18,148 bases of DNA from a virus (lineage: Duplodnaviria; Heunggongvirae; Uroviricota; Caudoviricetes): the IMG/VR virus record IMGVR_UViG_2609459852_000016; one strand, 5' to 3'. A program made the translations under genes and the position numbers. Of the stretch, positions 1 through 16,592 are shown piece by piece. The notes under the pieces are model-generated. The model ran no database searches. It saw nothing but the letters and a program-made list of their open reading frames with translations, and had not been told where the DNA came from. Position 1 is the first letter of the stretch. The number at the start of each line of letters is the position of its first letter.

Positions 1-507
1 ATGGAAAAGTTTTCATTGGAGTTCAAAAAGGTAGTATCAGAAAAGTACCTGGAGGGAGAGTTGAGTCTGAAATCTGTAGCAAGGATGTACGGTATCAGTC
101 CCTGCACAGTAAGAAAATGGGCTTATGCCTATCGGGAACATGGGATAAGCATACTTACGGGTAAAAAAGGACGCTATTCTGCTGAGTTAAAACTCACAGT
201 AGTAAAAGAAGTCGTGGATGACTGTTTTTCTGTTCGTGAAGTAGCGGTAAAACACGGAATACCAGCCTTTGGTACTGTATGCAACTGGCTTGAAAAATAT
301 AGAAAATATGGCGAAGATGCTTTCATTCGAAAAAATAAAAAGAGTATTCCTGTACCGGATAAAAGCGCCATTTCAGCACCACCACTACCAACATTAACCA
401 AAGATGAGAGAGAAGAACTTGAACAACTCAGGGTCGAGAATGCCTACTTAAAAAAGCTGAAAGCCTTGGTTCAGCAGAAAACATGCTCAACGTTCAGGAA
501 AAAGTGA
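1..507 (+). CDS. IS3-family transposase OrfA (HTH DNA-binding, leucine-zipper-like C-terminus)
   Basis: ATG at 1, stop TGA 505..507. C-terminal LEQLRVENAYLKKLKAL heptad-like segment is typical of IS3 OrfA proteins. Confidence 0.85.
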   Translation: MEKFSLEFKKVVSEKYLEGELSLKSVARMYGISPCTVRKWAYAYREHGISILTGKKGRYSAELKLTVVKEVVDDCFSVREVAVKHGIPAFGTVCNWLEKYRKYGEDAFIRKNKKSIPVPDKSAISAPPLPTLTKDEREELEQLRVENAYLKKLKALVQQKTCSTFRKK

Positions 508-1346
508 GCATTGTGAATGAACTAAGGCAGGAATGGCCATTATCCCGATTGTTAATTGTTTCCGGGCTGCCCCGGAGTACATTTTACTATCATGTCAGAC
601 GGCTTGCTGCTCCTGACCGGTATCAGTCTGCCAGAGCGCTTGTGCTGAAAATTTATCACCAGCACAAAGGCCGCTATGGTTACAGACGCATCAGGCTGGC
701 ATGTCGTAACGAGGGGGTTTTACTTAATGGTAAAACCGTCAGAAAACTGATGAAGGAACTGGGTATTAGCAGCCTGATCCGCGTTAAAAAATACCGTTCA
801 TATAAAGGAGAACAAGGACGAATTTGCGATAATCTCCTGAAACGCAATTTTGATGCAAAACGCCCCAACGAGAAGTGGGTTACAGATGTCACTGAATTTA
901 AAGTGAATGGCAAGAAGCTGTATTTGTCGCCCATCATGGATCTTTATAATGGAGAAATAATTTCCTATAACCTCGCCACTCGCCCTCAACCTTCAATGGT
1001 GCAGACTATGCTTACGGATGCGCTGAAACAGCTGTCGAAAGATGAACACCCCATACTGCACAGCGATCAAGGTTGGCAATATCAGATGTCCCGGTGGCAA
1101 CGATGGTTAAAGGATAGCGGTATAGTCCAGAGTATGTCTCGCCGGGGAAATTGTCTTGATAATGCAGTTATAGAGAGCTTTTTTGGAACATTGAAATCAG
1201 AATGTTATTACCTCAATGAATATAAAAATGTGGAGGACTTAAAGCGAGACATCATTGATTACATAAACTATTATAATCAATTGAGGATAAAGGAAAAACT
1301 TGGCGGTCTTAGCCCGGTACAATATCGATTGAGTCAGGCTGCATAA
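483..1346 (+). CDS. IS3-family transposase OrfB (DDE catalytic domain), probably expressed as an OrfAB fusion by -1 frameshift
   Basis: ORF in the -1 frame relative to orfA. Slippery run G AAA AAG at 498..504 sits immediately before the orfA stop. DDE motif residues are present. Confidence 0.85.
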   Translation: MLNVQEKVSIVNELRQEWPLSRLLIVSGLPRSTFYYHVRRLAAPDRYQSARALVLKIYHQHKGRYGYRRIRLACRNEGVLLNGKTVRKLMKELGISSLIRVKKYRSYKGEQGRICDNLLKRNFDAKRPNEKWVTDVTEFKVNGKKLYLSPIMDLYNGEIISYNLATRPQPSMVQTMLTDALKQLSKDEHPILHSDQGWQYQMSRWQRWLKDSGIVQSMSRRGNCLDNAVIESFFGTLKSECYYLNEYKNVEDLKRDIIDYINYYNQLRIKEKLGGLSPVQYRLSQAA

Positions 1347-1373
1347 GTTGTCCAAGATCTGGGGCGCAGTTCA
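1347..1373 (+). repeat. Right terminal inverted repeat of the IS element
   Basis: Sequence gttgtccaagatctggggcgcagttca ends in CA; homology of the interrupted gene M breaks exactly here. Confidence 0.6.
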
Positions 1374-1586
1374 AAATGCGCGGACGCCACCGTGCCGTTC
1401 CAGAAAGGCTTTTAAAGATGGGTGTTCACATTTACGAACACGTATCGTCACGCTGTAAGTTGACAACTGGTTATTCAGTCCCGCCGCACGACGCTGTTCA
1501 TAACCATCGCCCAGCTTCACTGTCACCACTTTCGGCTCTGATACCACATTCATATCCGGGCGCACTTTCCAGTGAAACGTCTCCAT
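1371..1586 (-). pseudogene. M: Minor tail protein M (lambda gpM-like), truncated by the IS insertion
   Basis: Translation METFHWKVRPDMNVVSEPKVVTVKLGDGYEQRRAAGLNNQLSTYSVTIRVRK...HGGVRAF matches lambda gpM (MKTFRWKVKPGMDVASVPSVRKVRFGDGYSQRAPAGLNANLKTYSVTLSV...HGGWKSF, from memory). The reading frame ends in a TGA formed by the first three bases of the IS terminus. About 70 of roughly 109 codons remain. Confidence 0.7.
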
Positions 1587-4500
1587 TACCGATATGCTCC
1601 ACTTAACCGACCACCATCACGGGCCTGCTGTTGCATAAAGTCCGCTGCCGCTTTTTTCCCAAGGTCATAAACCACCTTCAGGGCAGCCGGACCTATCTGC
1701 CCGTTCGTGCCATCGTTATTGATCTCGATGTTGTACTGCGGGGCAAACATCGCCATACCTGAACCACCAATATCCGCCACAACCCCCAGCTTACCGTCAG
1801 CACCACGACGCAGAGGCAGAATGGCTTCAGGTCCCGCTTCACCCATCACACCCGCGCCTTTTGCAAAAGCAAAAAACGTCGGACGGTTAACCACCGTGCC
1901 ACTGTAACGACTCAAATCAGCAGACTGATAAATCCCCCCATTGGCATTCAGGGAAAGGCTGCTGAGATCAAATCCCAGTACACTGCCAATCCCTTTTATC
2001 GATTTCATCATGGTTGCCTGCGCCAGGATTTTCGCCATATCTGACAGCACAGAAGAGGTGAAGGATTTGAAATTGAGTTTGCCGGTAGTGACAAAAGTTG
2101 CCAGGCCATTTCCCATGTTGCTGAAGGCTGACGAGAACACCTGTTCTGCTGTTCCTGCCGTATTATCTGCATCCACGGTAAAATCCTGAAATGCACGCAG
2201 GACTCCGTTTTTCCAGTTACCCTGCACAACTTCAAGCTGTTGCCAGTAACGGCGATTCTCATTCAGTTGTCGGTTCAGGCTCTCCGTCAGCGCCTGCTCG
2301 GCCTTTCTGTAGTCATCCGTGTTATATGTCCCTTTCTGCTCACTATCCCGCCTCAACTGCTCCAGCTGTTGCTGGTATTTCTGGCGAAGACTCAGTTGTA
2401 CCTGATATCGCTGCCGCTGCTGATCACCCATACCCACCGTGGCGATATCCAGGTCATGTTGCTGACGCTGAGCGCGCTCTTCTTCAGCCAGTTGACTGGT
2501 CAGCTGAATTGTTTTTTTCTTCAGATCGTTGAGTGCCGTCTGTTTCTGAAGCTCCTGCTGTTTTACATCCAGCAGCGTCAGTGCCTGAATCAGTTCATCT
2601 TTACGGGCCAGCACACTCTTTTCATCTGCCGTCAGTTTTTTCCCGTCCAGATCGCTGATGCGCTGCTGCAGAGCCAGAAGCTGTTTATGCGCTTCTGTCA
2701 TCTTTTCAGTGGCAATGCCTGCTGACTGTCTTGCAGCAGCAATCTGTCCTTCCACCTGTGCCTGTTGCTGACTGTACTGCAGCAATAACCGGGTGGCCTC
2801 ATCATTACGGGTTTCGCGTGTTTTTTTCTTACCGGATGCCAGGGCTTTCTCGTAACGTTCATTTTCACGTTGTATCGCTGCATCCCTGACAGCCTGATCG
2901 GCGTACTGCATGGAATTAATACGCGCAATTTCACGCTGATGTCGTGCTGCTTCCGTTTCATTCATCCGGTTCAGTGCAGCATTTTCAGCATTACGTCGTT
3001 TCTGTTGCTCCTGATAATTCCGCTCTGCCTGCTCTTTTGCATCCTGCAAATCCTTCTGGCGTTTTTTCTCCTGAAGATCGTTAAGACGCTGCTGATCGTA
3101 TTCAACCTGAGAAGATGATGCCGTCCAGGGGAGTCTTTTCGCCCGCGACACTTTCTCCTGTAAAGCGGCAATCTGTTCATCCAGCGAGTCTTCACGACCA
3201 ATATTCATGGCCGCATCCCAGAAACGACTCCACAAATCAGACAGATACTTCAGCGTACTGCCAAGCGCATTGAGGTTATCATCAATATCCGCAGTACGCC
3301 GACCGGTTTCCTCTGCCAGTGCAGACATGGCTATCCGTGCAGCATCACTGGACCGTCCCTGATCCCCAAGGACACGTATCTGCTCAAGCTGAGTGGCAGT
3401 AAGAAAATGCAGCTCATTGTCCAGAGCCTTCGCGGCATTTACAGGATCATCCTTCAGCCGCTTAAACTGATTTATGGTATCGCTGACCGACTGGCCAACC
3501 GATCGCTCCATCTGTGCGGCAGCTCTCGCCACCATACCGATATCGTTTCCACGAAATGCACCACTCCCCACCACCTGAGCCAGCGCACCGGCTGCAGCAT
3601 GTTGCGTGATACCATTCCCGGAAATAGCACGACTGAGCGTCCACAGCTGCCCGGCAGTGACTCCGGCATAATGCCCCGTCAGCGACAACTGGCGGTTAAA
3701 TTCTTCCCCCTCCTTCTGACCGTCATACCAGGCTTTACCCAGACCATAGACGGACGCGGCAATACCGCCAATAACCCCGCCAAGCATCATGCCTTTCGGT
3801 GACATCAGAGTGTCTATCCATCCGGCACGGTTAGCCAGCGTTATCCCGGATCCCCTCAGCGCCCCTAAATTGCCGCGGGCCAGTTCACCTATCAGAACGC
3901 CTATCTCCTGGCGGGCCGCTGCACTTTTCAGACCCAGCGAATGCGTGGCTTTTCCTGCCTGCTCCATTTTGCGGATATACACTTCTGCAGCACTGCTTAC
4001 CCCCAGCTGGGCAGCCTTAGCACGAAGCAACTCAGAAGAAGAAAGATTCTGGCGGGTTGCCTGCTCTTTAAGCTGACGGATAAACGCCACTTTCTGTCGG
4101 GTAGCCTCTTCCTCAGCCTGCGTAAGAACACGGGTTTTCGCCGTAACCTCAGAAATCAGCGCCAGATAATCCTGCTGACCAATCCCGCCACTGTTTCTGG
4201 CCTGTCGGATCTGCTGCTGAATACGCTGTAATTCCTGCAGCCCCGCACTGGCCTGTTTCACACTGTCAATCTGACGATAAAACGCGGCAGCCGCTTTATC
4301 CTGAGCCTCCGCCAGAGCCATGGCCTGCGCCTGTTCCTCGCGCATTTTCTGGCTCAGTGCCTCCATACGCTGGCGGGTTTGCTCCACCTCGCGGGCCATG
4401 CGTTCATGAGCCTGTGCGCTCTTCTCCACCGTCTGCGCATGGACGGATGCGGCTGTTGCAGCCGAAGAAGCCGCCTGCATTGTCTGCCGGGCGGCCTGAG

Positions 4501-4651
4501 TCTGACGCTCCATAAAACGCTGCATACGGGCAGAAGACCGTTCTGCATCGCTGGCTGCACCATTCAGAAGGTTTTTGATACGGGGAATTTCATTTTTAAA
4601 CTCTGCCGCATCAATCCCCAAATCAATGACCAGGTTGGCTATCTGGTCCAT
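1586..4651 (-). CDS. H: Tail tape measure protein (lambda gpH-like)
   Basis: N-terminus MDQIANLVIDLGIDAAEFKNE and C-terminus EINNDGTNGQIGPAALKVVYDL resemble lambda gpH. ATG at 4651 is preceded by GGAGG; the track start at 4681 is a TTG. Stop TAA overlaps the M start (TAATG). Confidence 0.9.
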   Translation of the reverse strand: MDQIANLVIDLGIDAAEFKNEIPRIKNLLNGAASDAERSSARMQRFMERQTQAARQTMQAASSAATAASVHAQTVEKSAQAHERMAREVEQTRQRMEALSQKMREEQAQAMALAEAQDKAAAAFYRQIDSVKQASAGLQELQRIQQQIRQARNSGGIGQQDYLALISEVTAKTRVLTQAEEEATRQKVAFIRQLKEQATRQNLSSSELLRAKAAQLGVSSAAEVYIRKMEQAGKATHSLGLKSAAARQEIGVLIGELARGNLGALRGSGITLANRAGWIDTLMSPKGMMLGGVIGGIAASVYGLGKAWYDGQKEGEEFNRQLSLTGHYAGVTAGQLWTLSRAISGNGITQHAAAGALAQVVGSGAFRGNDIGMVARAAAQMERSVGQSVSDTINQFKRLKDDPVNAAKALDNELHFLTATQLEQIRVLGDQGRSSDAARIAMSALAEETGRRTADIDDNLNALGSTLKYLSDLWSRFWDAAMNIGREDSLDEQIAALQEKVSRAKRLPWTASSSQVEYDQQRLNDLQEKKRQKDLQDAKEQAERNYQEQQKRRNAENAALNRMNETEAARHQREIARINSMQYADQAVRDAAIQRENERYEKALASGKKKTRETRNDEATRLLLQYSQQQAQVEGQIAAARQSAGIATEKMTEAHKQLLALQQRISDLDGKKLTADEKSVLARKDELIQALTLLDVKQQELQKQTALNDLKKKTIQLTSQLAEEERAQRQQHDLDIATVGMGDQQRQRYQVQLSLRQKYQQQLEQLRRDSEQKGTYNTDDYRKAEQALTESLNRQLNENRRYWQQLEVVQGNWKNGVLRAFQDFTVDADNTAGTAEQVFSSAFSNMGNGLATFVTTGKLNFKSFTSSVLSDMAKILAQATMMKSIKGIGSVLGFDLSSLSLNANGGIYQSADLSRYSGTVVNRPTFFAFAKGAGVMGEAGPEAILPLRRGADGKLGVVADIGGSGMAMFAPQYNIEINNDGTNGQIGPAALKVVYDLGKKAAADFMQQQARDGGRLSGAYR

Positions 4652-5350
4652 AACGCACACCTCCGGAAATACCTTCCCCAAGATGCATCAGTTCTTCGTC
4701 CGTTCGCTCCGGTATCCCGTTCTCTTCCGGTAAAAGGCTGAAATCAGCCACCGCAGCATCACTGCTACCGGACACCATTCTCACGATCAATGCCTTCAGC
4801 GAGGCAAACTGCGCATCCATCCACACATCACTGAAGCTCTGCATCCGGAAATAATCGCCCCACTCACCAAGCTCAGTGGCCGACATTTCCGACAGCATCC
4901 GCCGCCAGTCTGCCCGCCGGAACTCCCGGGCAAGCCGCATGACAAACTGCATTTCCCGCGTCAGGACTTTTCCGGCGTCAGCACCTCATGCTCCAAATCC
5001 CCGGCATTCTCAATGACTCCCATACCGCTCAGCGACAGAACCATCTCCGCCCCCGCTCCCAGGGCATCATACGACCATGTTGTAATAACGGATGCGCAAA
5101 GCGTCTCAACATCCTGAGACTGTTCCGCATTCCACAGTGAGCGGGAAACCAGCCAGGCATTGATATCCATCCCCATCCGCAGAAAAGCAATCTGTCGTTC
5201 AGCCTCCGGCAGTTCTCCCTCTTCGGCATCAAACTTTGCCGTTCGCTGCTGAACAAACGCCAGATATTCAATTCTCTGCAGCCCGGACAGCTCACTGAGC
5301 ACCACGGACTGCTTTTCATAATTAAACGTGCCCTGTTTCAGAAACATCAT
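4623..5350 (-). CDS. Tail assembly chaperone GT fusion, made by programmed -1 frameshift near the end of G
   Basis: The T-frame ORF (4623..4952) lies in the -1 frame relative to G and overlaps its 3-prime end. Candidate slip site GGAAAAG (plus-strand 4967..4973, read on minus) is analogous to lambda GGGAAAG. The T frame is closed by a stop 13 nt upstream of the slip site. Confidence 0.6.
4961..5350 (-). CDS. G: Tail assembly chaperone G (lambda gpG-like)
   Basis: MMFLKQGTFNYEKQSVVLSELSGLQRIEYLA resembles lambda gpG (MFLKTESFEHNGVTVTLSELSALQRIEHLA). ATG at 5350 (or 5347) is preceded by GGTGGAG; the track start at 5389 is a TTG. Confidence 0.8.
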   Translation of the reverse strand: MMFLKQGTFNYEKQSVVLSELSGLQRIEYLAFVQQRTAKFDAEEGELPEAERQIAFLRMGMDINAWLVSRSLWNAEQSQDVETLCASVITTWSYDALGAGAEMVLSLSGMGVIENAGDLEHEVLTPEKS

Positions 5351-5363
5351 GTTCTCCACCTGC

Positions 5364-5387
5364 AAAAAAGCCCCGGATAACCGGGGC
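5364..5387 (-). terminator. Intrinsic terminator between major tail gene V and G
   Basis: On the minus strand: GCCCCGG-UUAU-CCGGGGC (7-bp GC stem) followed by UUUUUU, lying between the V stop (5408) and the G SD/start (5350). Confidence 0.65.
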
Positions 5388-5407
5388 AAATGATGAGTAT
5401 CGTCCTG

Positions 5408-6151
5408 TTAACCTGCGGCGCTGACAGCCACCGCAGCCACTGCCACAAAATCGCCGTCAGAAGTCATGCCCACAATGCTGACACTGCCCTGCTTCACGCC
5501 TTTCACCGTGGCCACAAGCCCGTTCAGGGTCACCGTGGCAGTCTGTGGATCTGTCGAATGCACACTGATCGCTTTGTCACTGGCTCCGTCAGGTTTTACT
5601 GTAAAGGTCAGCGTGGTGGTTGCTCCCACTTTTACACTGGCAGATGCCGGTGCCACCGTCAGCCCGGTAACGCTCACTGTTTCAGTGCCTTCCTCTGCCA
5701 GATACGGACGCCCCACACCGCTGATTTTCACTGTGCGGGTCATCACGTCTTTTGAGGCAATGGTTTTACCCAGTGAGCTCAGCCAGCCACGGAAAACATC
5801 AACAGTGCCGTTGGGATATTTGATACGAAACGCGCAGACTTCACCGGAGTCGAACAACTGAACCAGTTTTTTCTGCCCGCTGTCACCCGGACGCCAGGCC
5901 AGCGTCGCCGAAGTATCACCGACGGATTTCTGCCCCTGGGTTGTCGTTTTCCAGTCTGCATCTTCATCATCGAGATAAGTGTCATCTTCTGCATCAGCGG
6001 TCATTTCGCCAGGTTGCAGATCCTTCACCATCGCAAGACGCAGCCAGTCAGTGTCCGATAAAGGGTTCGCAAACGCATCGCCCTTGCCGGTGTACATCCA
6101 GAACGTCGTTCCCGCACCTTTCGTTTTTGCCAGTGGATTTGGTGTGGTCAT
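5408..6151 (-). CDS. V: Major tail protein V (lambda gpV-like) with C-terminal Ig-like domain
   Basis: MTTPNPLAKTKGAGTTFWMY...YLDDEDADW...NGTVDVFRGW matches lambda gpV. ATG at 6151 is preceded by AGGAGG; the track start at 6157 is a GTG. Confidence 0.9.
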   Translation of the reverse strand: MTTPNPLAKTKGAGTTFWMYTGKGDAFANPLSDTDWLRLAMVKDLQPGEMTADAEDDTYLDDEDADWKTTTQGQKSVGDTSATLAWRPGDSGQKKLVQLFDSGEVCAFRIKYPNGTVDVFRGWLSSLGKTIASKDVMTRTVKISGVGRPYLAEEGTETVSVTGLTVAPASASVKVGATTTLTFTVKPDGASDKAISVHSTDPQTATVTLNGLVATVKGVKQGSVSIVGMTSDGDFVAVAAVAVSAAG

Positions 6152-6162
6152 TGCCACCTCCT

Positions 6163-6564
6163 TTAATTCGTGTACGTGATCTGGTACGTGATTTCCGCCA
6201 TCGCCCAGGTGGCCATCTCATTATCACGTTGATAGTTAAAACCGAGAGGGATCAGGGTGTCGATGAGTCCGGAAAGTGCCGGTATATCATTCAGGGCCGG
6301 GAAAATGGTGCTCTCCATCCACATATCCAGCTCTGAATCCGGTGCCTGTGCCCGGATGAAGACAGCAATATGCAGAACAGCCTGCCAGTCATCTTCATCC
6401 GTCATTTTTCCGGTGTACTGAGCATCACTCAGCCACACCGCCACGGCAGGCAGTTCCTGCGCATCAATAAATGCCGGAAGCCCGTCAAAAAACGTGGCGC
6501 TGTCTCCACACTGTTCCCGAAGGCGTGCCAGTACGGCCTGGCGGATTTGTGTATGTCGGTTCAT
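6163..6564 (-). CDS. U: Tail terminator protein U (lambda gpU-like)
   Basis: MNRHTQIRQAVLARL...ATFFDG...PAVAVWL...DSELDMWMES matches lambda gpU. Start ATG overlaps the Z stop (ATGA). Confidence 0.85.
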   Translation of the reverse strand: MNRHTQIRQAVLARLREQCGDSATFFDGLPAFIDAQELPAVAVWLSDAQYTGKMTDEDDWQAVLHIAVFIRAQAPDSELDMWMESTIFPALNDIPALSGLIDTLIPLGFNYQRDNEMATWAMAEITYQITYTN

Positions 6565-7139
6565 CGGGTCAGCCATAACCTCAGTTGTTGTTTCAGTGCA
6601 TACCCCAGCTGTTTCGGCATTTCCGCAGCAATAATGCGGTCGCGGGCATCTTCAAATGCCTGTGTCAGCTGTCCGGACAGCGGGACTTTCACCACATCAA
6701 TGGGGTAACGATTTTTGCCATCAATACGCCGCATCACATGCCAGCGACCATTCGCCAGTTGCTGAATAAACGCATCCCGGAAAAGATATTTACCCACCTT
6801 CAGCACACTGCCACGGTACTGCAGTTTTCCACCACGCCGGGCCAGTCTGACCCGGGCTGTCCCCAGCTTAATAGCGGGCAGATTGCCCCGGTTAACGCGG
6901 ATCCTGGCCGTCATTTTTCCTGACGGACTGGCTTTAAACACCCGGACACGCTGACGTACCAGTTTCAGGGGGATCCCTTTCACCTGGTTATCTCCCGCAA
7001 CGGTATTCCCGGCAACCTGCCGGGTGGCGACCGAGACCGCTTTCTGTGCCACACGGTTTATCGCCCATGCGCTGGCCTGTGGCACCATACGGGTATCAAG
7101 GCTGTTCAGATTACGGATGGCATTCTCAAGCCCCTTCAT
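6561..7139 (-). CDS. Z: Tail completion protein Z (lambda gpZ-like)
   Basis: MKGLENAIRNLNSLDTRMVPQASAWAINRVA...NGRWHVMRRIDGKNRYPIDVVK matches lambda gpZ; SD AGAGGTG upstream. Confidence 0.9.
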   Translation of the reverse strand: MKGLENAIRNLNSLDTRMVPQASAWAINRVAQKAVSVATRQVAGNTVAGDNQVKGIPLKLVRQRVRVFKASPSGKMTARIRVNRGNLPAIKLGTARVRLARRGGKLQYRGSVLKVGKYLFRDAFIQQLANGRWHVMRRIDGKNRYPIDVVKVPLSGQLTQAFEDARDRIIAAEMPKQLGYALKQQLRLWLTR

Positions 7140-7150
7140 CCCACACCTCT

Positions 7151-7426
7151 TTACTCAATAAAGATCATTGGCTTACCGTTAAAACGTTCATGCCGTGTGA
7201 CCGTCCATTGTTGTCCGTCATAAACAACGCGATCCCCGCGCCGTGGGCGGTATCCCGAAGAAAACACCACCAGAGAGACCGCAGGTCCGGACAGAGCATT
7301 CAGCTCTGCCAGTGTTTCTCCCGGGATCACAGTCATATCGACATCATTAATCGAGGCTGTCTTTCCCATCTTTCTAACCGTGATAGCATCCATACGCGCT
7401 GCCAGCCGGGAAAAGGGATCAGACAT
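7151..7426 (-). CDS. Head-tail joining protein (lambda FII-like)
   Basis: Sits in the FII position (before Z), about 90 aa, with weak motif similarity to lambda FII. Overlaps the upstream gene by 8 nt. Confidence 0.55.
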   Translation of the reverse strand: MSDPFSRLAARMDAITVRKMGKTASINDVDMTVIPGETLAELNALSGPAVSLVVFSSGYRPRRGDRVVYDGQQWTVTRHERFNGKPMIFIE

Positions 7427-7742
7427 TGAGTTTTACCGGCACTTCTTCTGCACTGGTTCCGGCATCTGCCCAGACAACCCCGACCAGCGGATCAGAGCCG
7501 CTGTTAGTCAGCTGAACTTTTCCGGACTTCAGATAAACCTTCTTACCCGTTTTCATGTCATCCGTTTTCAGCTTAGGCAGCATAAACACACCTTCGGTCA
7601 TGCCGTCGCCTGTTTCACCCTGTGGAATATCGGTCAGCGCCACCGCAAAAACATCGCCCACCTGCACCAGATCTCCGCTGCTGATGGCTGCACTGGCAAC
7701 AATCGCCACCGTTTTTCCTTCTTCTACAAAATTCTTTGCCAT
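7419..7742 (-). CDS. Small head-associated protein (possible DUF2190-like / head decoration), in the FI position
   Basis: ATG at 7742 with GGAG SD; 107 aa, Gly/Val-rich. Function is inferred only from position after the capsid gene. Confidence 0.5.
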   Translation of the reverse strand: MAKNFVEEGKTVAIVASAAISSGDLVQVGDVFAVALTDIPQGETGDGMTEGVFMLPKLKTDDMKTGKKVYLKSGKVQLTNSGSDPLVGVVWADAGTSAEEVPVKLNV

Positions 7743-7785
7743 AACTGTCTCCGCACAGCCCCGTTCAGGGGCTGATTTCAGGTAC

Positions 7786-7804
7786 AAAAAAAGCCCTTAC
7801 GGGC
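7786..7804 (-). terminator. Putative intrinsic terminator/attenuator immediately after the capsid gene
   Basis: Minus strand: GCCC-GUAA-GGGC (GNRA loop) followed by UUUUUUU. A second 6-bp hairpin AGCCCC-UGAAC-GGGGCU lies at 7757..7773. Confidence 0.45.
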
Positions 7805-7828
7805 CATCAGAGTTGTTGTCTGCGACGT

Positions 7829-9787
7829 TTACGCCGTACATTTCACCAGACCGCGGTGATCAACTGGCGCGACACCGGCGTCAATACGCACTTTCGTTGT
7901 CACGCCATCCACACTGAAGCCCTCCATCTGATCAATATATGGCGTATCCACACCGTTGAGATAAGCCACTTCAATCGTATCGGAGCCTTTTGACGCAGCC
8001 AGGTAGAAGGTGGTCTGGCTGTTATCATCAAGACGAGGCTCTGCAATAACGGTCGCAAAATCTTTCACCGGGTTAATAATACCGGCGTTAATGTCAGCCC
8101 CCTTGACACTTGAGGAGCGAATGACCTGGTTAGCAACAGACTCCATCGCCGTCGGTACCAGTACGAACGCAGGACGAATATTCAGATGACGCTCCCCCTC
8201 TTTCTGAACGCGCATCAACTGGCGGGCTTTATCCAGCGATGCCACGTCCATTGCAGCGCTCTCCAGTACGTTTGCATGTTTCGCTTTATCGAACAGACTT
8301 ACATTATCTGTGGAGATTTTCGGGTTAGACGTCAGAATGGCATAAACCAGATCGGCAATAGTGGATTTCGCCGCACGGCCCAGTTTCATCGGGACATCGG
8401 TCAGCATATTCAGATCATCATTGATAATGGCCTGACGGGTGATACTGAACAGCTCGCCATAGGTCGCCAGTGCAATAGTGGCCTGTTTATCTCCGGTGGT
8501 GACGTATTTATATTCCGCCCCTTCACGCACCTGACGCAGAGCACTGAAGCCCCCCATACCCACACGATGGGCAATTTTAAAATCAGACAACTGACCTTTC
8601 CGCGTCCACTGTTCATAGGTTTCAGGGGCATCTTCCCAGCCCTGCAGAATGGCTTTGTTCGCAACATCCAGCAGAATATTACCGAAGTCAGACGTACTGT
8701 GTGTGAACGCCGCACCGACCATCTGCATCGGGTTATAACCGGAAACCCCAATACCCCGTTCAGTTAGTGACATACGGGCATATTCACGCAGGGTCATCCC
8801 GTTGTAGACATTATCACGTTCGGTTTTTTCAAATCCGGCACGCGCCATCAGCGCCTGGCGAATCCCGTCCCCCACAAAATTACCGTTACCGGCATAAATA
8901 TGAGCCGGGGTATTTTTATTGGATGGCGTGGACTCGCGCCCCATCTCGTTCAACAGCTTTTCACGGGCCTGCTCCAGCGAACATTCAGGATCGGCAAGAC
9001 ACTGGGCCTGCAGCGTCTGATAACGCCCACCAAACATGGCAAACAGATCATTAATACCGTTTACACGCGCTTTTTGCTCTGCCAGTACCTGCGCACGGAT
9101 ACTGTTTTCATCCACCACGGGTGCTGCTGCCTGCACTGGCGTCCGGGAGGCTGCAGGTTCATCATCCTGTACGCGTGGAGCACTGTTGCGTGGCGGAGTA
9201 ATCATGTTTCGAATGGATTCCGGCATCTTTTTAAATTCCTCTGTACGTTTTGACTGAATACATGCCATTGCCTTAACGGCTGGTGTCACCTGATCAGCAA
9301 ATCCCTGTGCCAGACATTCGGCACCGGACATCCAGGTCTCATCCGCCAGCATGGCAGCAATTTCATCGGTGGTTTTCCCGGTTTTCTGTGCATAAGCGGG
9401 TAACAGAACCGCCTCAACTTTATCGAGCAGGTCGGCATAGGTGCGCATGTCCTCCGCATCACCGCCCGTAAAGCCAAATGGTTTATGAATCATCATGAAG
9501 GAGTTTTCCGGCATAATGACCGGGTTTCCCACCATCGCAATGACCGACGCCATTGACGCCGCCACACCGTCGACATAAACGGTAATGGACGCACCATGTG
9601 TTTTCAGTGCATTAAAAATGGCGATGCCTTCAAAGACATCGCCACCCGGTGAATTAATATGGAGATTAATGTGGGTGATATCGCCCAGTGCATTCAGATC
9701 ACTGATAAACTGCTTCGCTGTAACACCCCAGAAACCAATCTCGTCATAAATATAAATATCCGCGTCACTCTGGTGACCTGCCTGCAT
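7829..9787 (-). CDS. Prohead protease (ClpP/S14-like) fused to major capsid protein (HK97-fold)
   Basis: N-terminal ClpP-like region (DIYIYDEIGFWG...INSPGGDV...GVAASMAS...MIHKPF), then an Ala/Pro-rich linker and a roughly 400-aa capsid-like C-terminal region. ATG at 9787 is 14 nt after the portal stop; the longer track ORF overlaps portal by about 250 nt. Confidence 0.75.
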   Translation of the reverse strand: MQAGHQSDADIYIYDEIGFWGVTAKQFISDLNALGDITHINLHINSPGGDVFEGIAIFNALKTHGASITVYVDGVAASMASVIAMVGNPVIMPENSFMMIHKPFGFTGGDAEDMRTYADLLDKVEAVLLPAYAQKTGKTTDEIAAMLADETWMSGAECLAQGFADQVTPAVKAMACIQSKRTEEFKKMPESIRNMITPPRNSAPRVQDDEPAASRTPVQAAAPVVDENSIRAQVLAEQKARVNGINDLFAMFGGRYQTLQAQCLADPECSLEQAREKLLNEMGRESTPSNKNTPAHIYAGNGNFVGDGIRQALMARAGFEKTERDNVYNGMTLREYARMSLTERGIGVSGYNPMQMVGAAFTHSTSDFGNILLDVANKAILQGWEDAPETYEQWTRKGQLSDFKIAHRVGMGGFSALRQVREGAEYKYVTTGDKQATIALATYGELFSITRQAIINDDLNMLTDVPMKLGRAAKSTIADLVYAILTSNPKISTDNVSLFDKAKHANVLESAAMDVASLDKARQLMRVQKEGERHLNIRPAFVLVPTAMESVANQVIRSSSVKGADINAGIINPVKDFATVIAEPRLDDNSQTTFYLAASKGSDTIEVAYLNGVDTPYIDQMEGFSVDGVTTKVRIDAGVAPVDHRGLVKCTA

Positions 9788-9800
9788 CCTGAACCAGGAA

Positions 9801-11309
9801 TTATTCTTCGGACTGGTCGTCGGTGTGCTGCGGCTCCTGTCGTTTCGTTGCGGCACTGCTGCCTCCTTTATCACTGGCCGGATCGGTATCAAATACCAGA
9901 TCCAGCTTGCGGTTTTCATCAATTTCGGCCTTGCGCCGACGTTTGACATCATCCGGATTACGACCACCTGCACGTACCCAGTCTGATTCTGTCGCCGCTC
10001 CACCACGAATCTGAATTTTCCAGGCCTCAGCCTCCTTAACAGGGTCAATCCACGGCATCACCGGTCCGGAATACACCGCGGTATACAGTGAAGAACGATC
10101 AAGATCGCGGGGTAGCCTGATAACACCGGATGCCACAGCCTGTTTCAGCCAGGCACGATACATCGGGCGGGTGACGGCACCAATAAACCAGTCCTGCAGG
10201 ATCAGGTAGCCATCAGTGGATTCAACCAGCTCCTGACGCTGGGCGCTGTAAGTGCCGTTATAGTTGCGTGCCGTACTGGAAAAACTCAGACGGCTGCCCG
10301 CCGCCACGGCACGCAACTGACCATTACGAAAAGTTTCAAGGTTAGGATTGGGACGATCCGACTTCACCATTCCGATTTCTTCGCCGGGTTTCAGATCGTC
10401 GTAAATAATGCCTGGCTGAATGGTAAGCTCGCGTTCATTCTCCTTGCTGCCATTACCATCCGGTTCATAGCTCTGCCCGTCGCCTTTCCGGATGTACATC
10501 CCCAGAGCAGCGGCGATCCTTGCTGCAGTCAGCTCAGAATCTTCATACTCTTTCAGGGCACTGAGGCGGATCAGCACACCGGACAACAAAGACGTCCCGC
10601 GCATCTGGTGCAGACGGCGAACAAATTTAAGATGCAGCATTCGCTCTGCATCCACTTCTTTGGTTTCCATCTGCCGCCCGGATACGGGACGGCTTTTATA
10701 CACCAGATATTTTTCGGGACGCCCCCAGTCATCAACAAACACGCCCTGATTCAGCCTGTTGCTCTCATCACTGGTCATGGGAATAAAGTCCGGCTCGAGC
10801 GCCTCCAGCCAGAAATGAACACCGGCAGAAGGCGTCAGGCTGTTTATGCGCCCGGAAACCATCTGGGCAAACACCTCACCATCGCGCAGCCAGGTACGCA
10901 GCATCAGACGTTCCAGCATCGGACGGGTAAACTGCCCGGTGACTTCCGGACTGACAGACCATTCACTCCATCGGGTGCGTATCTCCGCTGCCAGATCACG
11001 GGCAATGGCCCCATTGCGTAATACCGGATGTGGCTCGACAATAATCCCGTTTTTCCCCACCACCCGTTCTTCCAGCTTGTCAAATACACCAATAACCAGA
11101 TCGTGGTTGTTATCAAGGTAACGGGCCTGCTCACGTAACGACACGGCCCCGTACTGGCTTAACTGGTCGGCAGTTCGGTTTTCCCGCCGGGCTTTGTGTG
11201 TCCGTGTCGTTTTTACGGCCTCATAAGCCTGGATCACCGCACGGGAACGCAGCCTTGCCGCTTTCCATCCTGGTGAAAAAACGCCAATCACATCATCAAG
11301 AATTGCCAT
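9801..11309 (-). CDS. Portal protein (lambda gpB-like)
   Basis: About 500 aa, in the position between W and the protease/capsid gene. ATG at 11309 with GAGG SD, overlapping the W stop (TGATG). Confidence 0.8.
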   Translation of the reverse strand: MAILDDVIGVFSPGWKAARLRSRAVIQAYEAVKTTRTHKARRENRTADQLSQYGAVSLREQARYLDNNHDLVIGVFDKLEERVVGKNGIIVEPHPVLRNGAIARDLAAEIRTRWSEWSVSPEVTGQFTRPMLERLMLRTWLRDGEVFAQMVSGRINSLTPSAGVHFWLEALEPDFIPMTSDESNRLNQGVFVDDWGRPEKYLVYKSRPVSGRQMETKEVDAERMLHLKFVRRLHQMRGTSLLSGVLIRLSALKEYEDSELTAARIAAALGMYIRKGDGQSYEPDGNGSKENERELTIQPGIIYDDLKPGEEIGMVKSDRPNPNLETFRNGQLRAVAAGSRLSFSSTARNYNGTYSAQRQELVESTDGYLILQDWFIGAVTRPMYRAWLKQAVASGVIRLPRDLDRSSLYTAVYSGPVMPWIDPVKEAEAWKIQIRGGAATESDWVRAGGRNPDDVKRRRKAEIDENRKLDLVFDTDPASDKGGSSAATKRQEPQHTDDQSEE

Positions 11310-11521
11310 CAGAACCTCGCCAGCCGGTACCCGGGATGCCCCCGTCGTAGTGTAATCAGAGCCGCAAGGCGGCGCTCCCACTCCTGCCGTCCCTGCCGGA
11401 TCTCAGATAAGTTTTCCATGGTCATCTGCTGACCATTAAAGGTGACGGATTTTCCGTCCAGCACCGCCATTTCAGCTTCCGTATAACGCTGAATCATGGC
11501 TTCGATATCATTCTGGTTCAT
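11309..11521 (-). CDS. Head-tail joining protein W-like
   Basis: 70 aa, between terminase large subunit and portal as in lambda. ATG at 11521 overlaps the terminase stop (ATGA), with GGAGG 6 nt upstream. Confidence 0.5.
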   Translation of the reverse strand: MNQNDIEAMIQRYTEAEMAVLDGKSVTFNGQQMTMENLSEIRQGRQEWERRLAALITLRRGHPGYRLARF

Positions 11522-13620
11522 AACCATCCTCCGGAAGTCAGCCAGGGGTTAACATCGTCAGTTACTGTTTTCTTCCGTTTTTGTTTTTTAACAGGCGTGG
11601 ATACCGGTTCCGGTGTGGGTGACGGTTCGGTACTGTCCGGGACACACTCCAGCCAGGTTTCCCGGCTCGCCCACTCCGGTGCATCCGGCCAGCGGATCTT
11701 TTCGTATCCATGCAGAATGACCAGAGCCTCGGCATACACCATCAGGTCAAAAGCTTCGTTGGCACCGCGACCCGGCTTACTCCATTTCCCGTCACTGCTC
11801 CGCTCTTCATACGTCAGTTCGTCGTAAAACCAGCTCCCCAGCCAGTCAGGGAAATGCACATAGCCGGGACCTGGCGAGTCACGCCATAACGCGTTATTCA
11901 CCCGGTCTTTCAGGGCATCCGTCTGAAGAAGCCAGAGCGGCACATCACCTGCGGCCTGCGCCCGGCGGCCCGTTCGTCCGGTGTTATCAGGGAATGTACG
12001 GCTGATCAGTTTTGCGCGCCGGATGCTGTCACCCTTAAACAGGTAAATACGTTTACCAAGGCCATCACGACGGCAACGACGCCAGAATTTATAGGCATTA
12101 TCAGTGACCCCGTCTTCACCGCCGGAGTCCACCGCCATTGCCATCAGTCGCATTTGTTGAGAAGGATCGGAGGCCAGCGGCCAGCTTTTATGAAAAACAT
12201 CCGTCAGCAGGACATCCCAGTCTTCCGGATAGCTGGCCGGATCAATTCGCTGGCTCTCCCCGTCGCTGTCACCGCGCAATGACTGCGTGATGTTGTAACG
12301 ATCAATAATCCAGCGTTCGCCACGGCTGCCATAGCCCGTTACCTGAACCACAAAACGGCGATGACGTCCCGCCTGCACATCCACTGTCGCCACAAGGAAA
12401 TTAACGCCATCCGGCACACTGCGGGAAGGAACTGGCTCTGCCCGCTGCTCAAGCAATTCACTTTTTCGTTGATCCATGCTGGCGCGGGGAAGATAAGGTA
12501 ATCCCCAGTCGGTATTGATAACCGTCTTGAGTGTCTCTTCACTTCCGGTTGTCTCGTATTCCTGTTCTGCAGTAAGCAGTTTGTAAACGAGTTGCGAGAG
12601 TGTCTGATAAGCAGCTGCCGGACCCTCCATCCAGAATGACGCAATACGTGAACGCCGGGGATCACCATAACGACTGCCATCTGCATTGATGGATTCACCA
12701 TCCCGTAACCAGACCCCACGTCCGTTCAGCTCGCGTTTTTGTTCAGGCAAAATCCGTCCTGAACAGGAAGGACACTGAATATAAGCCGCCTCACTTGCCA
12801 GCACAGGATCGGCAATATCACGGAAACCAGCAACCACATCGCCGCAGGGCTGAAAATACTCACCACAGTGTGGACAGGGCCAGTACCAGCGACGGCGATC
12901 GCCACGGTTATAGAGCGACAGGATCCCCGTGGTTGGTGGAGCCTCATGCGGTGAAGTCCGTCGCCATTTCACATCCTTCACATCCCTGCCGGGGGAACTC
13001 TCCACCAGCGTCATACCACTGGACATAAATGTGGTGGTACGTTTTGAGGCAAGAGAGAAGGCATCCCCCTCACCATCAATATCTTCCGGAAAACGGTCAT
13101 AATCCGTCAGCGCCACGCATTTATAATCTGATGAAGACATGATATTGACTGACGGCCAGCCGATTTTCAGGTAGTTGCCAGCAAGGAATGTTCTGTCATA
13201 AACGTTGTTGTCATTTTTGTTCGGACTCAGGCGACTGACCACTTCCGGGCTGACGCGAAACGTTCTGGCGAGTCGTTTTTTGGAGTGTTCGCGGGCTTTT
13301 TCCTCCGTCATCTGAATGATCAGCATATCAGCAGGATCGCAAATCACGTTGTAAATCCCCCAGCCGTCAATCAGGCCGATAGTCTTGCCGGTTCGTGCCG
13401 GGCCAACAAATATCACTGCGTCGTATTCACGCGAGGCCAGGCAGTTCATAGGCTCAATAACATACGGTGCCACCAGCGGATCCCACGGGACTGAGTTCCC
13501 TGCCCCCATAGGCACCCGCATATACTGAGCAACGGCATCAGCAACCCGCATTCGTCTCGGTGCGCGAAGGATATAACCTGAATCGGTTCGTGCTGCCTTT
13601 GCGGTTTCCTGATTCAGCAT
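11518..13620 (-). CDS. Terminase large subunit (lambda gpA-like)
   Basis: 700 aa with Walker-A-like VGPARTGKT and Cys-rich CPHCG...CPSC segment as in gpA. AGGAGG SD 5 nt upstream; start overlaps the small-subunit stop (TAATG). Confidence 0.85.
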   Translation of the reverse strand: MLNQETAKAARTDSGYILRAPRRMRVADAVAQYMRVPMGAGNSVPWDPLVAPYVIEPMNCLASREYDAVIFVGPARTGKTIGLIDGWGIYNVICDPADMLIIQMTEEKAREHSKKRLARTFRVSPEVVSRLSPNKNDNNVYDRTFLAGNYLKIGWPSVNIMSSSDYKCVALTDYDRFPEDIDGEGDAFSLASKRTTTFMSSGMTLVESSPGRDVKDVKWRRTSPHEAPPTTGILSLYNRGDRRRWYWPCPHCGEYFQPCGDVVAGFRDIADPVLASEAAYIQCPSCSGRILPEQKRELNGRGVWLRDGESINADGSRYGDPRRSRIASFWMEGPAAAYQTLSQLVYKLLTAEQEYETTGSEETLKTVINTDWGLPYLPRASMDQRKSELLEQRAEPVPSRSVPDGVNFLVATVDVQAGRHRRFVVQVTGYGSRGERWIIDRYNITQSLRGDSDGESQRIDPASYPEDWDVLLTDVFHKSWPLASDPSQQMRLMAMAVDSGGEDGVTDNAYKFWRRCRRDGLGKRIYLFKGDSIRRAKLISRTFPDNTGRTGRRAQAAGDVPLWLLQTDALKDRVNNALWRDSPGPGYVHFPDWLGSWFYDELTYEERSSDGKWSKPGRGANEAFDLMVYAEALVILHGYEKIRWPDAPEWASRETWLECVPDSTEPSPTPEPVSTPVKKQKRKKTVTDDVNPWLTSGGWL

Positions 13621-14114
13621 TACTCCTCCTGCTGTAATTCCTCCTCATCATCCGCACCTGCTTCAGTCACCCGCAGGGCTTTCTGATCGCGCAGATCATC
13701 AATAATGGACTGAACACGGCTCACAGCGGCAGGCTGCAGACCGCAGTCACGTTCAAGAATATCCGGTAATGTCTCCAGCACCTGCACGACCGCTTTTGCC
13801 CAGATGGCAAACTCCCGTCTGACATCACTGGCCGGAATGAGTTGTGCCGTTTCCTGTTCGAACTTAAGACGCTCACGTTCAGACTGATACCAGGCTTTGC
13901 GCTCATGCGCGTCCATTTCGCCTTCTGCAACCGGCGGTGGTAATGCCAGAAATGCCGACACAATATCAACCACCCGATAAAGCTTGAGGTTGCTTTCATG
14001 CCCCCCTGCAACGGGTAGATTTTGCAGCCTTGCCGCAGCAGTCTGGCGATGTACACCTGACAATGCCGCCAGTTGACTGATATTCAGCGTCAGATTTTTT
14101 AACTCTCGATCCAT
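13620..14114 (-). CDS. Terminase small subunit (lambda Nu1-like)
   Basis: N-terminal HTH-like LNISQLAALSGVHRQTAAARLQ. The start lies 186 nt from the putative cohesive end (lambda Nu1 starts at about nt 191). GGAG SD. Confidence 0.75.
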   Translation of the reverse strand: MDRELKNLTLNISQLAALSGVHRQTAAARLQNLPVAGGHESNLKLYRVVDIVSAFLALPPPVAEGEMDAHERKAWYQSERERLKFEQETAQLIPASDVRREFAIWAKAVVQVLETLPDILERDCGLQPAAVSRVQSIIDDLRDQKALRVTEAGADDEEELQQEE

Positions 14115-14205
14115 ACCCGCTCCAGAATGTTTTAAACATGCATCTTGCGAACAACTTTAGGCAAACGGTGTTAGTGATGAACAAAAAACAATCAGAATCG
14201 ACACC

Positions 14206-14246
14206 ATAAAAATAAAACCACTGTAATATCAATCAATTACAGTGGT
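14206..14246 (-). other. Perfect 11-bp-stem hairpin plus U-tract in the cosB position (terminator-like or terminase/IHF site)
   Basis: Plus-strand accactgtaat-atcaatca-attacagtggt (14217..14246). On the minus strand it is followed by UUUAUUUUUAU (14206..14216). Confidence 0.4.
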
Positions 14247-14283
14247 GGTGATGACGAATAAAATTTCAAAAACTAGCCTTTTT

Positions 14284-14300
14284 CCGCGACGCTCCCGCCC
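14284..14300 (-). other. Candidate cos site (cosN-like cohesive-end sequence)
   Basis: Minus strand reads GGGCGGGAGCGT-CGCGG, against lambda left end GGGCGGCGACCT-CGCGG (from memory), followed by a GAAATTTTA...TTCGTCAT motif similar to the lambda cosB region. Confidence 0.5.
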
Positions 14301-14666
14301 CGTGGCAGGGACCCCCACTGGGAGGACCCGACAGCCTGACAACCGTGACGAGCATCTGAAACAGAGCTTTACATAATGGCATGGGGATAATTCAGAAGGA
14401 CATCACAGCATGCCCACACAAATTAGTGTGAGTGTCCTGTTTCTTACTACGCGCAGGACTGACGAGCATGAGGGGAAAATACGCGAACCGAAATGCCTTA
14501 TCTTCAGAAATGCAGCCGGCATCCGAACTGGACGATATTGTAAATTCACCTAAATACGAGGCATTGCTGTAGTTGAATTGCAGTACTGTATTAGCCTTAC
14601 AGTGACAGAATACGATATTGACTCTGTCACTTGTGAAATGGTCAGAATGGTTAGCAGTTATGGTGA

Positions 14667-14873
14667 TCAGTCAACCACCAGGGAATAATCCTTCGTATTC
14701 TTATCGTGCTTTACTAACGCGGCCTCAATTGCCCTGAATGCTTCCAGAGATACTTGATGTTCTATACATGCAATTACAACATCCGGGTAACCCATCGAAA
14801 TGGTGCTATTAAGCATAGTTTTTACACGAACCTGCTCCTGGGAGGGGGCATCAGTGTATTGATCTTTATGCAT
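14667..14873 (-). CDS. Hypothetical small protein (68 aa), cargo gene of unknown function
   Basis: ATG at 14873 with GGAG 9 nt upstream; balanced amino-acid composition; no motif recognised. Confidence 0.5.
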
Positions 14874-15168
14874 TTTGTCGCTCCATTCGTTTGCTCTTCA
14901 CTTGCGGCTAAAAATATAACGTCAAATCACTCAGCATGAAAGAGTGAAAGTTTCAGCGCGTTTCCCTCACATAATCTGTCGTTTGTATTCTCTTCAGGCA
15001 TACCGGAAAGACTAGGTATTGTCACACAACCAATACCATCGACAATCGAGATTTATATCTATTCGGTAATGTTTAAATATAACAAAACCCCGTAAAAACG
15101 AGGTTTATGGGTAATTTGTATTGTTGAATAGCATCTGATGAGAAATTGATGCTAATACTATAAACATG

Positions 15169-15342
15169 CTAGATTAAATCAATCTTGATATCATAGCTTT
15201 CAAGACCAGTCATTTTTTCCCGTGCAGTAAACTGGATACTGGTAACTTCTTTCCCGGTCTTTTTCTTAAGCTCAATGATTTTTTTTGTTATATATTCAGA
15301 AATATCTGCTTCTGTTTTTGTTTTTAACTCTTCAATGTTCAT
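15169..15342 (-). CDS. gnsB: GnsA/GnsB-family protein
   Basis: MNIEELKTKTEADISEYITKKIIELKKKTGKEVTSIQFTAREKMTGLESYDIKIDLI closely resembles E. coli GnsB (from memory). ATG at 15342 with AGAGGA SD. Confidence 0.75.
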   Translation of the reverse strand: MNIEELKTKTEADISEYITKKIIELKKKTGKEVTSIQFTAREKMTGLESYDIKIDLI

Positions 15343-15514
15343 CATTTCCTCTTTTAGTCTGTTATGACTGTCCTGGTACACAGTAGTGTCAATTATATGG
15401 AGCAAACGTATAAAAGATAAGATGAAACATCGCAATAATCAACATACGACGGTCTAAATTTCACACAAACAGATAAAGATGATTATCATTTATTATCAAT
15501 GCATTAGAATCAAA

Positions 15515-15745
15515 TCAATTCAAGAGTCTCATTGCTGCTTCCAGAATTTCTTCTGAAGTTACATGTCGATCCGCTGCTACATAAATGACTTTATGATCTC
15601 CGGTCAGAGATGGAAACCCTGCAGCCATTACAGTGAGGTGTGTTGTTTCGCCATTTGGATATTCACGCATGATGGTGTTAACTCCGGTCATCACTGGCAC
15701 TACCATTGCTGGTTCAGAGTTAAAAAAAACTATTATTTTTTTCAT
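15515..15745 (-). CDS. Hypothetical 76-aa protein (possibly YmcE/YnfN-like by position)
   Basis: ATG at 15745; the longer track ORF starts with GTG inside the upstream terminator hairpin. It sits between the gnsB-like and cspI-like genes. Confidence 0.5.
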   Translation of the reverse strand: MKKIIVFFNSEPAMVVPVMTGVNTIMREYPNGETTHLTVMAAGFPSLTGDHKVIYVAADRHVTSEEILEAAMRLLN

Positions 15746-15789
15746 AATGTTACCGTAATATGTGAGTATCCATCGACTAGACACTAAGC

Positions 15790-15809
15790 AAAAAAGCTCC
15801 CGAAGGAGC
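15790..15809 (-). terminator. Intrinsic terminator downstream of cspI
   Basis: Minus strand: GCUCC-UUCG-GGAGC followed by UUUUUU. Confidence 0.6.
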
Positions 15810-16016
15810 CTTCATTTTCACTTTCTTAAATCTAACGACAGATGGCTAACATTTAAGTATTGTGAAATATTATCAAATGTAATCATCATTGATTTACAAA
15901 AGATACATTTTGCCCCGAAAGGATTTCTGTCAGAAACATCAAAAGATGATGTTCTATACTGAGAACCATGGCAACACGGGCATCTAAAGTGAATATGGTT
16001 TGTAATATTTTCTACC

Positions 16017-16229
16017 TCAAAGTGCCACTACATGAACAGCTGCAGGGCCTTTAGGTCCGTTCTCAATACCAAATTCGACTTCCTGATTCTCAGTTAACGT
16101 TTTGAAATCGTTGCTCTGAATAGCTGAGAAATGCACAAACACATCTTTGCTACCATCTTTCGGCGTGATGAAACCAAAACCTTTTTCAGGGTTAAACCAT
16201 TTCACTAAACCAGTCATTTTGTTAGACAT
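16017..16229 (-). CDS. cspI: CspA-family cold-shock protein (CspI-like)
   Basis: [38 protein letters not shown]...: cold-shock domain with RNP motifs, near-identical to E. coli CspI as I recall it. AAGGTAATA SD-like leader. Confidence 0.9.
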
Positions 16230-16592
16230 CATTATTACCTTTTGAAGAAGTTAGCCCTTGGGCAGAATGGTCCGAAAAAAAATATCAGAGAGAAAAACCA
16301 ACAAGGAAATCTCAAGAGGTACAAATAATAAAATTATAACAATGACTGCTTCAGATAATTTTGTAACAAACCAGAACACCATTAACGCATGATTAACCAA
16401 CCATAGCAAGGATTACTTTTGTAAAGAAAAACACACGAATGAAACAATAGCTTTATTTATTAATAAAACGTGTCATTCTGTCTAATGACCTTTTATCTTA
16501 CCCTTAAGATTTCAAGGATTTTGACTCATGGAAGAGTCCTTTTTATTTAAATTTCACATTCAGCGCTAAAAATAATCCGATTTAATATTAAT
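16230..16592 (-). promoter_or_regulatory. AT-rich promoter and long 5-prime leader region upstream of cspI
   Basis: About 360 bp without ORFs between the Rz stop and cspI start. Contains a TATAAT on the minus strand (plus-strand 16333..16338). Cold-shock genes typically have long structured leaders. Exact promoter not resolved. Confidence 0.3.

Follow-up and report, generated by a model that had tools for sequence, protein, structure and literature searches.

We analysed a stretch of viral DNA of 18,148 nucleotides (IMG/VR record IMGVR_UViG_2609459852_000016; hereafter the window, meaning the whole stretch), which carries the late region of a lambdoid prophage and begins within an insertion sequence (IS). 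Our results make it very probable that the distal tail gene M of a full-length lambdoid prophage has been interrupted by a complete IS3-family element, that a palindrome directed the element to this site, and that M has been struck there repeatedly and independently. Insertion of an IS into M is an ordinary kind of event; the notable part is the recurrent, palindrome-directed targeting, which is not tied to a published description. The features around the junction are as follows, in window coordinates.

1–1373, plus strand: IS3-family element, bases 48–1420 of 1420 bp, as delimited in the closed genome of Escherichia coli EC93
1–507, plus strand: orfA, 168 amino acids (aa), helix-turn-helix (HTH) DNA-binding part of the transposase (Pfam HTH_28, 4.5e-18; HTH_Tnp_1, 1.7e-17)
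450–475, plus strand: predicted programmed -1 frameshift signal, read from the sequence
483–1346, plus strand: orfB, 287 aa, DDE (rve) catalytic part of the transposase (Pfam rve, 1.1e-26; rve_2; rve_3; HTH_21)
1350–1373, no strand: right-hand terminal inverted repeat, GTCCAAGATCTGGGGCGCAGTTCA; the outermost 14 bp match the left end, TGAACTGCGCCCCA, perfectly in inverted orientation
1371–1373, minus strand: TGA stop codon of truncated M, from the IS tip (sequence and list of open reading frames)
1374–1377, no strand: AAAT, right-hand copy of the 4-bp target-site duplication (from the EC93 flanks)
1374–1391, no strand: right half of the palindromic target, AAAT GCGC GGACGCCACC (from the empty sites in loci L031 and L032)
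1374–1586, minus strand: M', codons 1–71 of the 109-codon distal tail protein gene, homologue of lambda gpM (Pfam Phage_min_tail)
1586–4681, minus strand: tape measure gene H, given for context (Pfam TMP_2, TMP_4, Tape_meas_lam_C)

The initial annotation of the window had described an IS3-family element interrupting M on the strand opposite to the phage late operon, with homology to gpM ending at about position 1374 beside a TG...CA-type terminus that supplies the stop codon. Every element of this observation proved correct to within a base or two. The interruption is borne out by the open reading frames, the Pfam domains and the junction itself, as DNA of phages and prophages with an intact M aligns with the window from exactly position 1374. 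The open reading frame at 1371–1586 on the minus strand encodes 71 aa and scores 84 bits against the Phage_min_tail profile (PF05939; cut-off 39), positions 1–70 of 108 of the profile corresponding to residues 2–71 of the protein. It stops at residue 71 of a domain that is about 109 aa long in full, as in the full-length alleles of L031 and L032. The truncated gene reads ...GGC GTC CGC GCA TTT TGA, and since this TGA is the complement of 1371–1373, where the IS terminates in TCA, the stop is supplied by the IS tip. The IS lies on the plus strand and M', whose start overlaps the stop of H (TAATG), on the minus strand, with the insertion after codon 71. A second, intact M in the prophage, which the initial annotation held would overturn its proposal, was not found in the window by tblastn, nor was the 3' remainder of M. 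The intact allele of 109 aa aligns over residues 1–108 with the lambda Tail tip protein M (PDB 8iyk, E 1e-36) and shares with gpM (PF05939; PDB 8iyk, 8iyl, 8k35) its length of 109 aa and the gene order H-M-L, whereas the window encodes residues 1–71 only, the other 38 lying beyond the IS and outside the window. In the lambda virion, gpM is ordered over its entire length of 109 residues and folds as a beta-sandwich; the distal tail ring, which connects the tip with the tube, is a hexamer of this protein (PMC10721106).

The complete IS copy was delimited in EC93 (L001, 11954–13373) and measures 1420 bp, which fits the IS3-family range of about 1.2–1.55 kb. Position 1 of the window is the orfA ATG, 47 bp inside the IS, and the left inverted repeat lies outside the window. 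The element ends in 5'-TGAAC...GTTCA-3' and thus shows the 5'-TG...CA-3' inverted repeats of the IS3 family; its left end is TGAACTGCGCCCCAAAGGTTAGAC and the complement of its right end TGAACTGCGCCCCAGATCTTGGAC, with identical outer 14 bp. The target duplications found across its copies (AAAT, AAA, AAAA, AAT and TAT) likewise fall within the 3–5 bp of this family. As judged from the sequence, orfA and orfB overlap with orfB in the -1 frame, the typical IS3-family arrangement. A slippery heptamer, A AAA AAG, is located at 450–456 in the frame of orfA together with a hairpin (GCTGAA-N8-TTCAGC) at 456–475, and a -1 slip at the heptamer, as expected for this family, would give rise to an OrfAB fusion of 448 aa. 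This prediction agrees with the existence of cluster members of 447–448 aa and with the label 'programmed frameshift' that the Prokaryotic Genome Annotation Pipeline (PGAP)/RefSeq assigns to the same gene. The window copy differs from the common copy by two private synonymous differences, at positions 354 and 542.

A public collection contains the 71-aa product, in exactly this form, in 60 of its indexed blocks. The sequences of the 10 assemblies whose loci are listed among these blocks were compared, and in 10 of 10 the position of the IS in M is identical to the nucleotide. The right IS end abuts M' in six of these loci (L002, L004, L005, L006, L007 and L011), which is also the orientation of the window, and the left end does so in the other four (L003, L008, L009 and L010). 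As inheritance does not invert an IS in place, both orientations at the same nucleotide imply at least two independent insertions. Moreover, L002 and L009, which carry the IS in opposite orientations, show one difference in 1500 flanking bases, and the four copies that abut M' with their left end reside in four different flank haplotypes, one of them a prophage with lambda-type head genes; several independent events are therefore likely. Both IS ends begin with 5'-TGA and the cut lies at a codon boundary, so that, whichever way the IS is oriented, M terminates in frame with an identical stop and leaves an identical fragment of 71 aa. The junction patterns had no match in IMG/VR or in the JGI metagenomes.

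What distinguishes this nucleotide became apparent from the flanks of other copies of the IS, which were gathered from chromosomes, plasmids and viral contigs and included an unbiased set of 10 contexts found via the OrfB protein. In 19 of 22 distinct flanks the sequence GTCC is present 7–9 nucleotides from the IS tip, the chance expectation being about 1.2% per flank. Anchored on GTCC, the half-site reads R-T-R-G-Y-G-T-C-C-R, and the full target RTRGYGTCC-N11-12-GGACRCYAY, that is N4, the 3–4 duplicated base pairs and again N4 between the two arms. The reconstructed empty sites are palindromes with the 3–4 duplicated bases at their centre; when folded they are predicted to form hairpins of 12–13 pairs with the duplicated bases in the loop. 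The intact M site, GGTGGCGTCC GCGC ATTT CAGT GGACGCCACC, matches this consensus perfectly: it has the form GGTGGCGTCC-N12-GGACGCCACC with arms of 10 bp, the insertion falls at its centre, and the predicted hairpin has 12 pairs with the insertion point in the loop. The empty M site of L032 contains CCACTGAAATGCGCGG. In the 44.5 kb of phage mEp460 there are two matches to GTCC-N12-GGAC, and the M site alone matches the extended arms. Thus, M contains the centre of the preferred palindrome of this IS, which accounts for its being struck repeatedly and independently.

About 10 unrelated sites share the GTCC...GGAC palindrome. Those that fit the pattern comprise the dadX-cvrA intergenic region, the leaders of two IS66-family elements, rhs, ydcZ and a position next to aceK. 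The dadX-cvrA region, whose empty site reads ATAGTGTCC ATTA AAA GGAT GGACACTAT, represents another hot spot of recurrent insertion, probably the one that this IS occupies most often. Its intergenic position is occupied in both orientations (L033 and L038 as opposed to L034, L036 and L042) with the same AAA/TTT duplication. The IS is also often found in IS66-family elements of the ISCro1-, ISEc22- and ISEc47-like types (L015, L017, L019, L022, L025, L027, L037 and L040), some 20 bp upstream of where tnpA starts; the leader of these elements carries a matching palindrome. In E. coli VTB97420v, two inversely oriented copies (L016 and L021) lie about 300 kb apart, each flanked by one rhs half-site and one IS66-leader half-site, with the duplications TAT and TTTT split between them; such exchanged flanks are the signature of a chromosomal inversion by recombination between both copies. 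In addition, the Enterobacter plasmid pJBIWA003_1 (L030) harbors a relative with 90% identity and the tip TGTAGTGCGCCCC, which sits in a GTGTCCACTA...TAGTGGGAAC palindrome beside an IS66-type tnpA, so that the target preference seems to be common to the clade.

Taken together, the specificity for the palindrome is well supported by these sequence comparisons. The arms of the target (GGACAC/GGACGC) resemble the inner part of the inverted repeats of the IS itself (TTAGACACC and TTGGACAAC; GGACA/AGACAC), and this likeness suggests, as a hypothesis, that the DNA-binding domain of the transposase recognizes the target. More tentatively, this IS might be a previously undescribed sequence-specific inserter that uses the exact centre of a bipartite palindrome in either orientation and thereby repeatedly truncates M of prophages of the Qin/mEp460 type, a proposal that we regard as possible and on balance doubtful.

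Instead of a sequence preference on the part of the transposase, the recurrence could reflect adaptive domestication, with selection for hosts that have disarmed their prophage. To inactivate a lytic prophage while keeping its cspI-like and gnsB-like cargo could benefit the host, and the presence of the truncated allele in many samples (the 60 blocks) would be in keeping with this idea. However, any essential late gene would serve such a purpose, yet every copy is located at one and the same phosphodiester bond; moreover, insertions between genes and within other IS elements, on which selection of this kind does not act, obey the palindrome rule as well. We therefore consider selection an unlikely cause of the recurrence, even though it may help the truncated M allele to persist.

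The initial annotation had further deduced from the absence of L, K, I and J that the prophage is probably tail-defective (cryptic) or recently inactivated, and had called for a search for the other IS end, the target duplication and the 3' remainder of M. All three were found in the closed genome of EC93, the only carrier of the same IS-M junction among 5,426 complete E. coli genomes. There, the left flank ends in CACTGAAAT directly at the IS and the right flank continues from the IS with AAATGCACGG; the inverted repeats are present, and the element is flanked by a direct repeat of 4 bp, AAAT, in place of the predicted 3 bp, EC93 being the sole complete copy of the junction. Removal of the IS and one repeat restores the M frame (...GVRAF followed by QWTPPYDW...). 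To the left of the IS, EC93 retains the M remainder, L, a C40 peptidase gene (K), I, J, lom and tail fibre genes. The J gene of this copy is frameshifted (L001, 6311–9770), which indicates that the EC93 prophage has decayed further than that of the window. As to the window itself, it shows 100% identity across 11,586 bp to contig JONE01000030.1 (assembly GCA_000711605.1). This contig stops exactly at the left tip of the IS, 47 bp beyond window position 1, and the draft contig of L003 likewise ends at an IS tip. The absence of L, K, I and J is thus explained by the start of the window within the IS and the break of the contig at the IS repeat: it is an edge effect of the draft assembly and not a sign of gene loss, and the conclusion drawn from it in the initial annotation does not hold. 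Most likely, the prophage retains its distal tail genes on the far side of the IS, in a different contig.

If the source strain has kept the distal genes, AAAT and CAGTGGACGCC, followed by gene L, would adjoin the left IS end. The left flank would read CCACTGAAAT up to the IS, with the M codons from 72 and gene L on its far side, and the neighbouring JONE01 contig would begin or end with TGAACTGCGCCCCAAAGG.

The alternative, an old, cryptic prophage remnant in which L, K, I and J were lost and the IS marks the edge of the deletion, appears improbable. The window does contain neither distal tail genes nor the M remainder, IS elements can cause adjacent deletions, the flanks of L026 and of the VTB97420v pair are rearranged, and J is damaged in EC93. 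Against this, the window begins inside the IS, both draft contigs end at its tip, and EC93 combines a clean 4-bp duplication with all distal genes. In addition, a prophage that matches the window with 2 mismatches in 16.8 kb is complete, and the other late open reading frames in the window are uninterrupted.

It is still harder to reconcile the data with a single ancestral insertion that was spread among prophages by recombination, so that the shared position would reflect inheritance without any site preference. Such a scenario would accommodate the invariance of junction and 71-aa product, the mosaic and recombining nature of lambdoid prophages, and the occurrence of the insertion in only one complete genome. 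It does not account for the two orientations found at one nucleotide, even where the flanks show a single difference in 1500 bases, as there is no plausible mechanism by which an IS inverts in place between its own flanks, nor for the occupation of dadX-cvrA both ways with the same duplication and the palindrome at some 10 unrelated sites; we regard it as very improbable. Finally, that the IS-M junction is a chimera assembled from a collapsed repeat has a negligible probability: contigs do end at IS tips, the usual sign of repeat-limited short-read assembly, but the same junction, the duplication and both halves of M are present in the closed EC93 chromosome, and the junction recurs in independently made NCBI, ENA and Logan assemblies.

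Several points nevertheless weigh against a recurrent, palindrome-directed insertion into M of an otherwise complete prophage. Three of the 22 flanks lack GTCC, one being an allele with a single-nucleotide polymorphism and two being poor half-sites. The count of events above two assumes little recombination. The insertion occurs in only 1 of the approximately 1,823 complete E. coli genomes that carry the H-M region; the term hot spot therefore denotes site-precise recurrence and not high occupancy. In the source strain, whose contig stops at the left IS tip, an IS-mediated deletion of the distal genes is conceivable. Lastly, tail deficiency, activity of the IS and read-through into L-J are deduced from sequence.

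The IS is present in about 38% of the complete E. coli genomes, with some 2,500 places in the 5,426 genomes, and is apparently active. The 27-mer of the left IS end had no exact match in a one-genome-per-species collection, and the IS-end 27-mers match only three IMG/VR contigs. No specific IS name emerged from cluster names, plasmid annotation, a homologue search or a literature search on the end and target sequences. PGAP and other sources give 'IS3 family transposase' only, and one UniRef name reads 'IS150 conserved protein InsB'; the nearest named relatives, the ISBam1 and ISBcen9 families, have about 58–59% identity in OrfB. With the insertion sequences of the IS3 family (IS150-like group; for example IS150, IS911 and IS3) the element, at 1420 bp, shares the overlapping HTH OrfA and DDE/rve OrfB, the A AAA AAG frameshift site with its hairpin, the 5'-TG...CA-3' ends and target duplications of 3–4 bp. 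In contrast, its strict palindromic target is not a general IS3-family trait.

In behaviour, the element is closest to IS1397 and ISKpn1, from which it is set apart by its target. Both are IS3-family elements reported to insert into the loops of repetitive extragenic palindromic (REP) sequences, also termed palindromic units (PU) (PMC1525189 and, for IS1397, its supplement 13). They have in common with our IS the insertion into the centre or loop of a stem-loop palindrome, the short duplication and the reuse of sites. Their target is REP/PU (GGCGTG followed by AACGCC), whereas that of our IS is RTRGYGTCC-N11-12-GGACRCYAY and includes coding sequence (M and rhs) as well as IS66-family leaders. 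A REP is present in none of the 22 flanks, nor is the target the REP/PU of a bacterial interspersed mosaic element (BIME). No copy of the IS was found at the CFT073 REP site reported for IS1397, assuming that CFT073 is in the collection searched. Identity with IS1397 was rejected on this behaviour, namely the want of a REP flank and of a copy at the CFT073 site.

The prophage is a lambdoid prophage of the mEp460/cdtI type, and its nearest sequenced relative sits at the Qin (ydfJ) locus. Comparison of window positions 1374–18148 with this relative, the prophage of E. coli O166:H15 JNE21-003, yielded 2 mismatches in 16,775 positions (99.988% identity). In the JNE21-003 prophage, which adjoins a truncated ydfJ, M is intact with 109 codons and nothing is missing from the distal tail region; the late region of the functional phage mEp460 is 98.7% identical. 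Two differences from an intact-M prophage indicate that the insertion is very recent, as the initial annotation had offered as one of its options. The open reading frames for head, terminase, portal, capsid, proximal tail and tail tube, and lysis are uninterrupted within the window, and only M is disrupted. The data thus demonstrate the knock-out of a single essential tail gene; a cryptic status is not shown. Lambdoid prophages of E. coli inactivated by IS elements are known, for instance by IS629 in O157 prophages, and the Qin prophage of K-12 is a decayed remnant. What the present case shares with them is an IS that knocks out a morphogenesis gene of an otherwise complete prophage of the Qin locus; it differs in that the same nucleotide is recurrently targeted and in that decay is minimal (2 differences in 16.8 kb).

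The window also includes Qin-type cargo. An Rfam cspA thermoregulator of full length (15971–16387, minus strand; 110 bits, cut-off 78) surrounds a gene for a cold-shock protein (CSD domain; 16017–16232, minus strand), annotated as cspI in the sister prophage. Between the terminase and lysis modules, an open reading frame with a GnsA/GnsB-family toxin domain (15169–15435, minus strand) corresponds to gnsB of the sister prophage, and ynfN- and ymcF-like small genes lie nearby. Among the prophages with the IS in M, the tape measure protein varies in length (703, 1018 and 1021 aa; L003, 7890–10001, L007 and L010). The 703-aa form is devoid of the Tape_meas_lam_C domain and may represent a second lesion.

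As to the sequence of events, the IS would have entered M by the standard copy-out/paste-in route of the IS3 family, and insertion after codon 71 would have duplicated the four base pairs AAAT. As residues 72–109 of a beta-sandwich ring protein of 109 residues are lost, tail assembly should be abolished. Upon induction of the prophage, the cell would then lyse and set free heads that lack tails, unless M is provided by another prophage. The transcript of the late operon would run through the IS in antisense. Read on the minus strand, the frameshift hairpin (456–475) followed by TTTTTT scores as a terminator-like site facing this transcript. A search of the IS for an outward promoter or a strong terminator gave nothing above the shuffled expectation, the hairpin with its T6 run being weakly terminator-like only. 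A polar effect of the IS on L-J is possible and, at present, speculative.

These results bear on the state of such prophages and on their annotation. Knock-out of M by the IS would be a first step toward a cryptic prophage, and the prophage studied here is probably unable to make its own tails and otherwise almost pristine. Neither its cspI-like and gnsB-like cargo nor its lysis genes have so far become stably domesticated; the cell could still be killed upon induction, and M could come from another lambdoid prophage in the same host. In annotation, the distal tail genes missing here should not be scored as gene loss, and site-specific recurrence explains why an identical 71-aa 'phage tail protein' fragment turns up in unrelated assemblies. 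For the IS3 family, a precise palindromic target is hereby defined for a common IS of E. coli, which adds a member with a non-REP target to the small set of palindrome-targeting elements.

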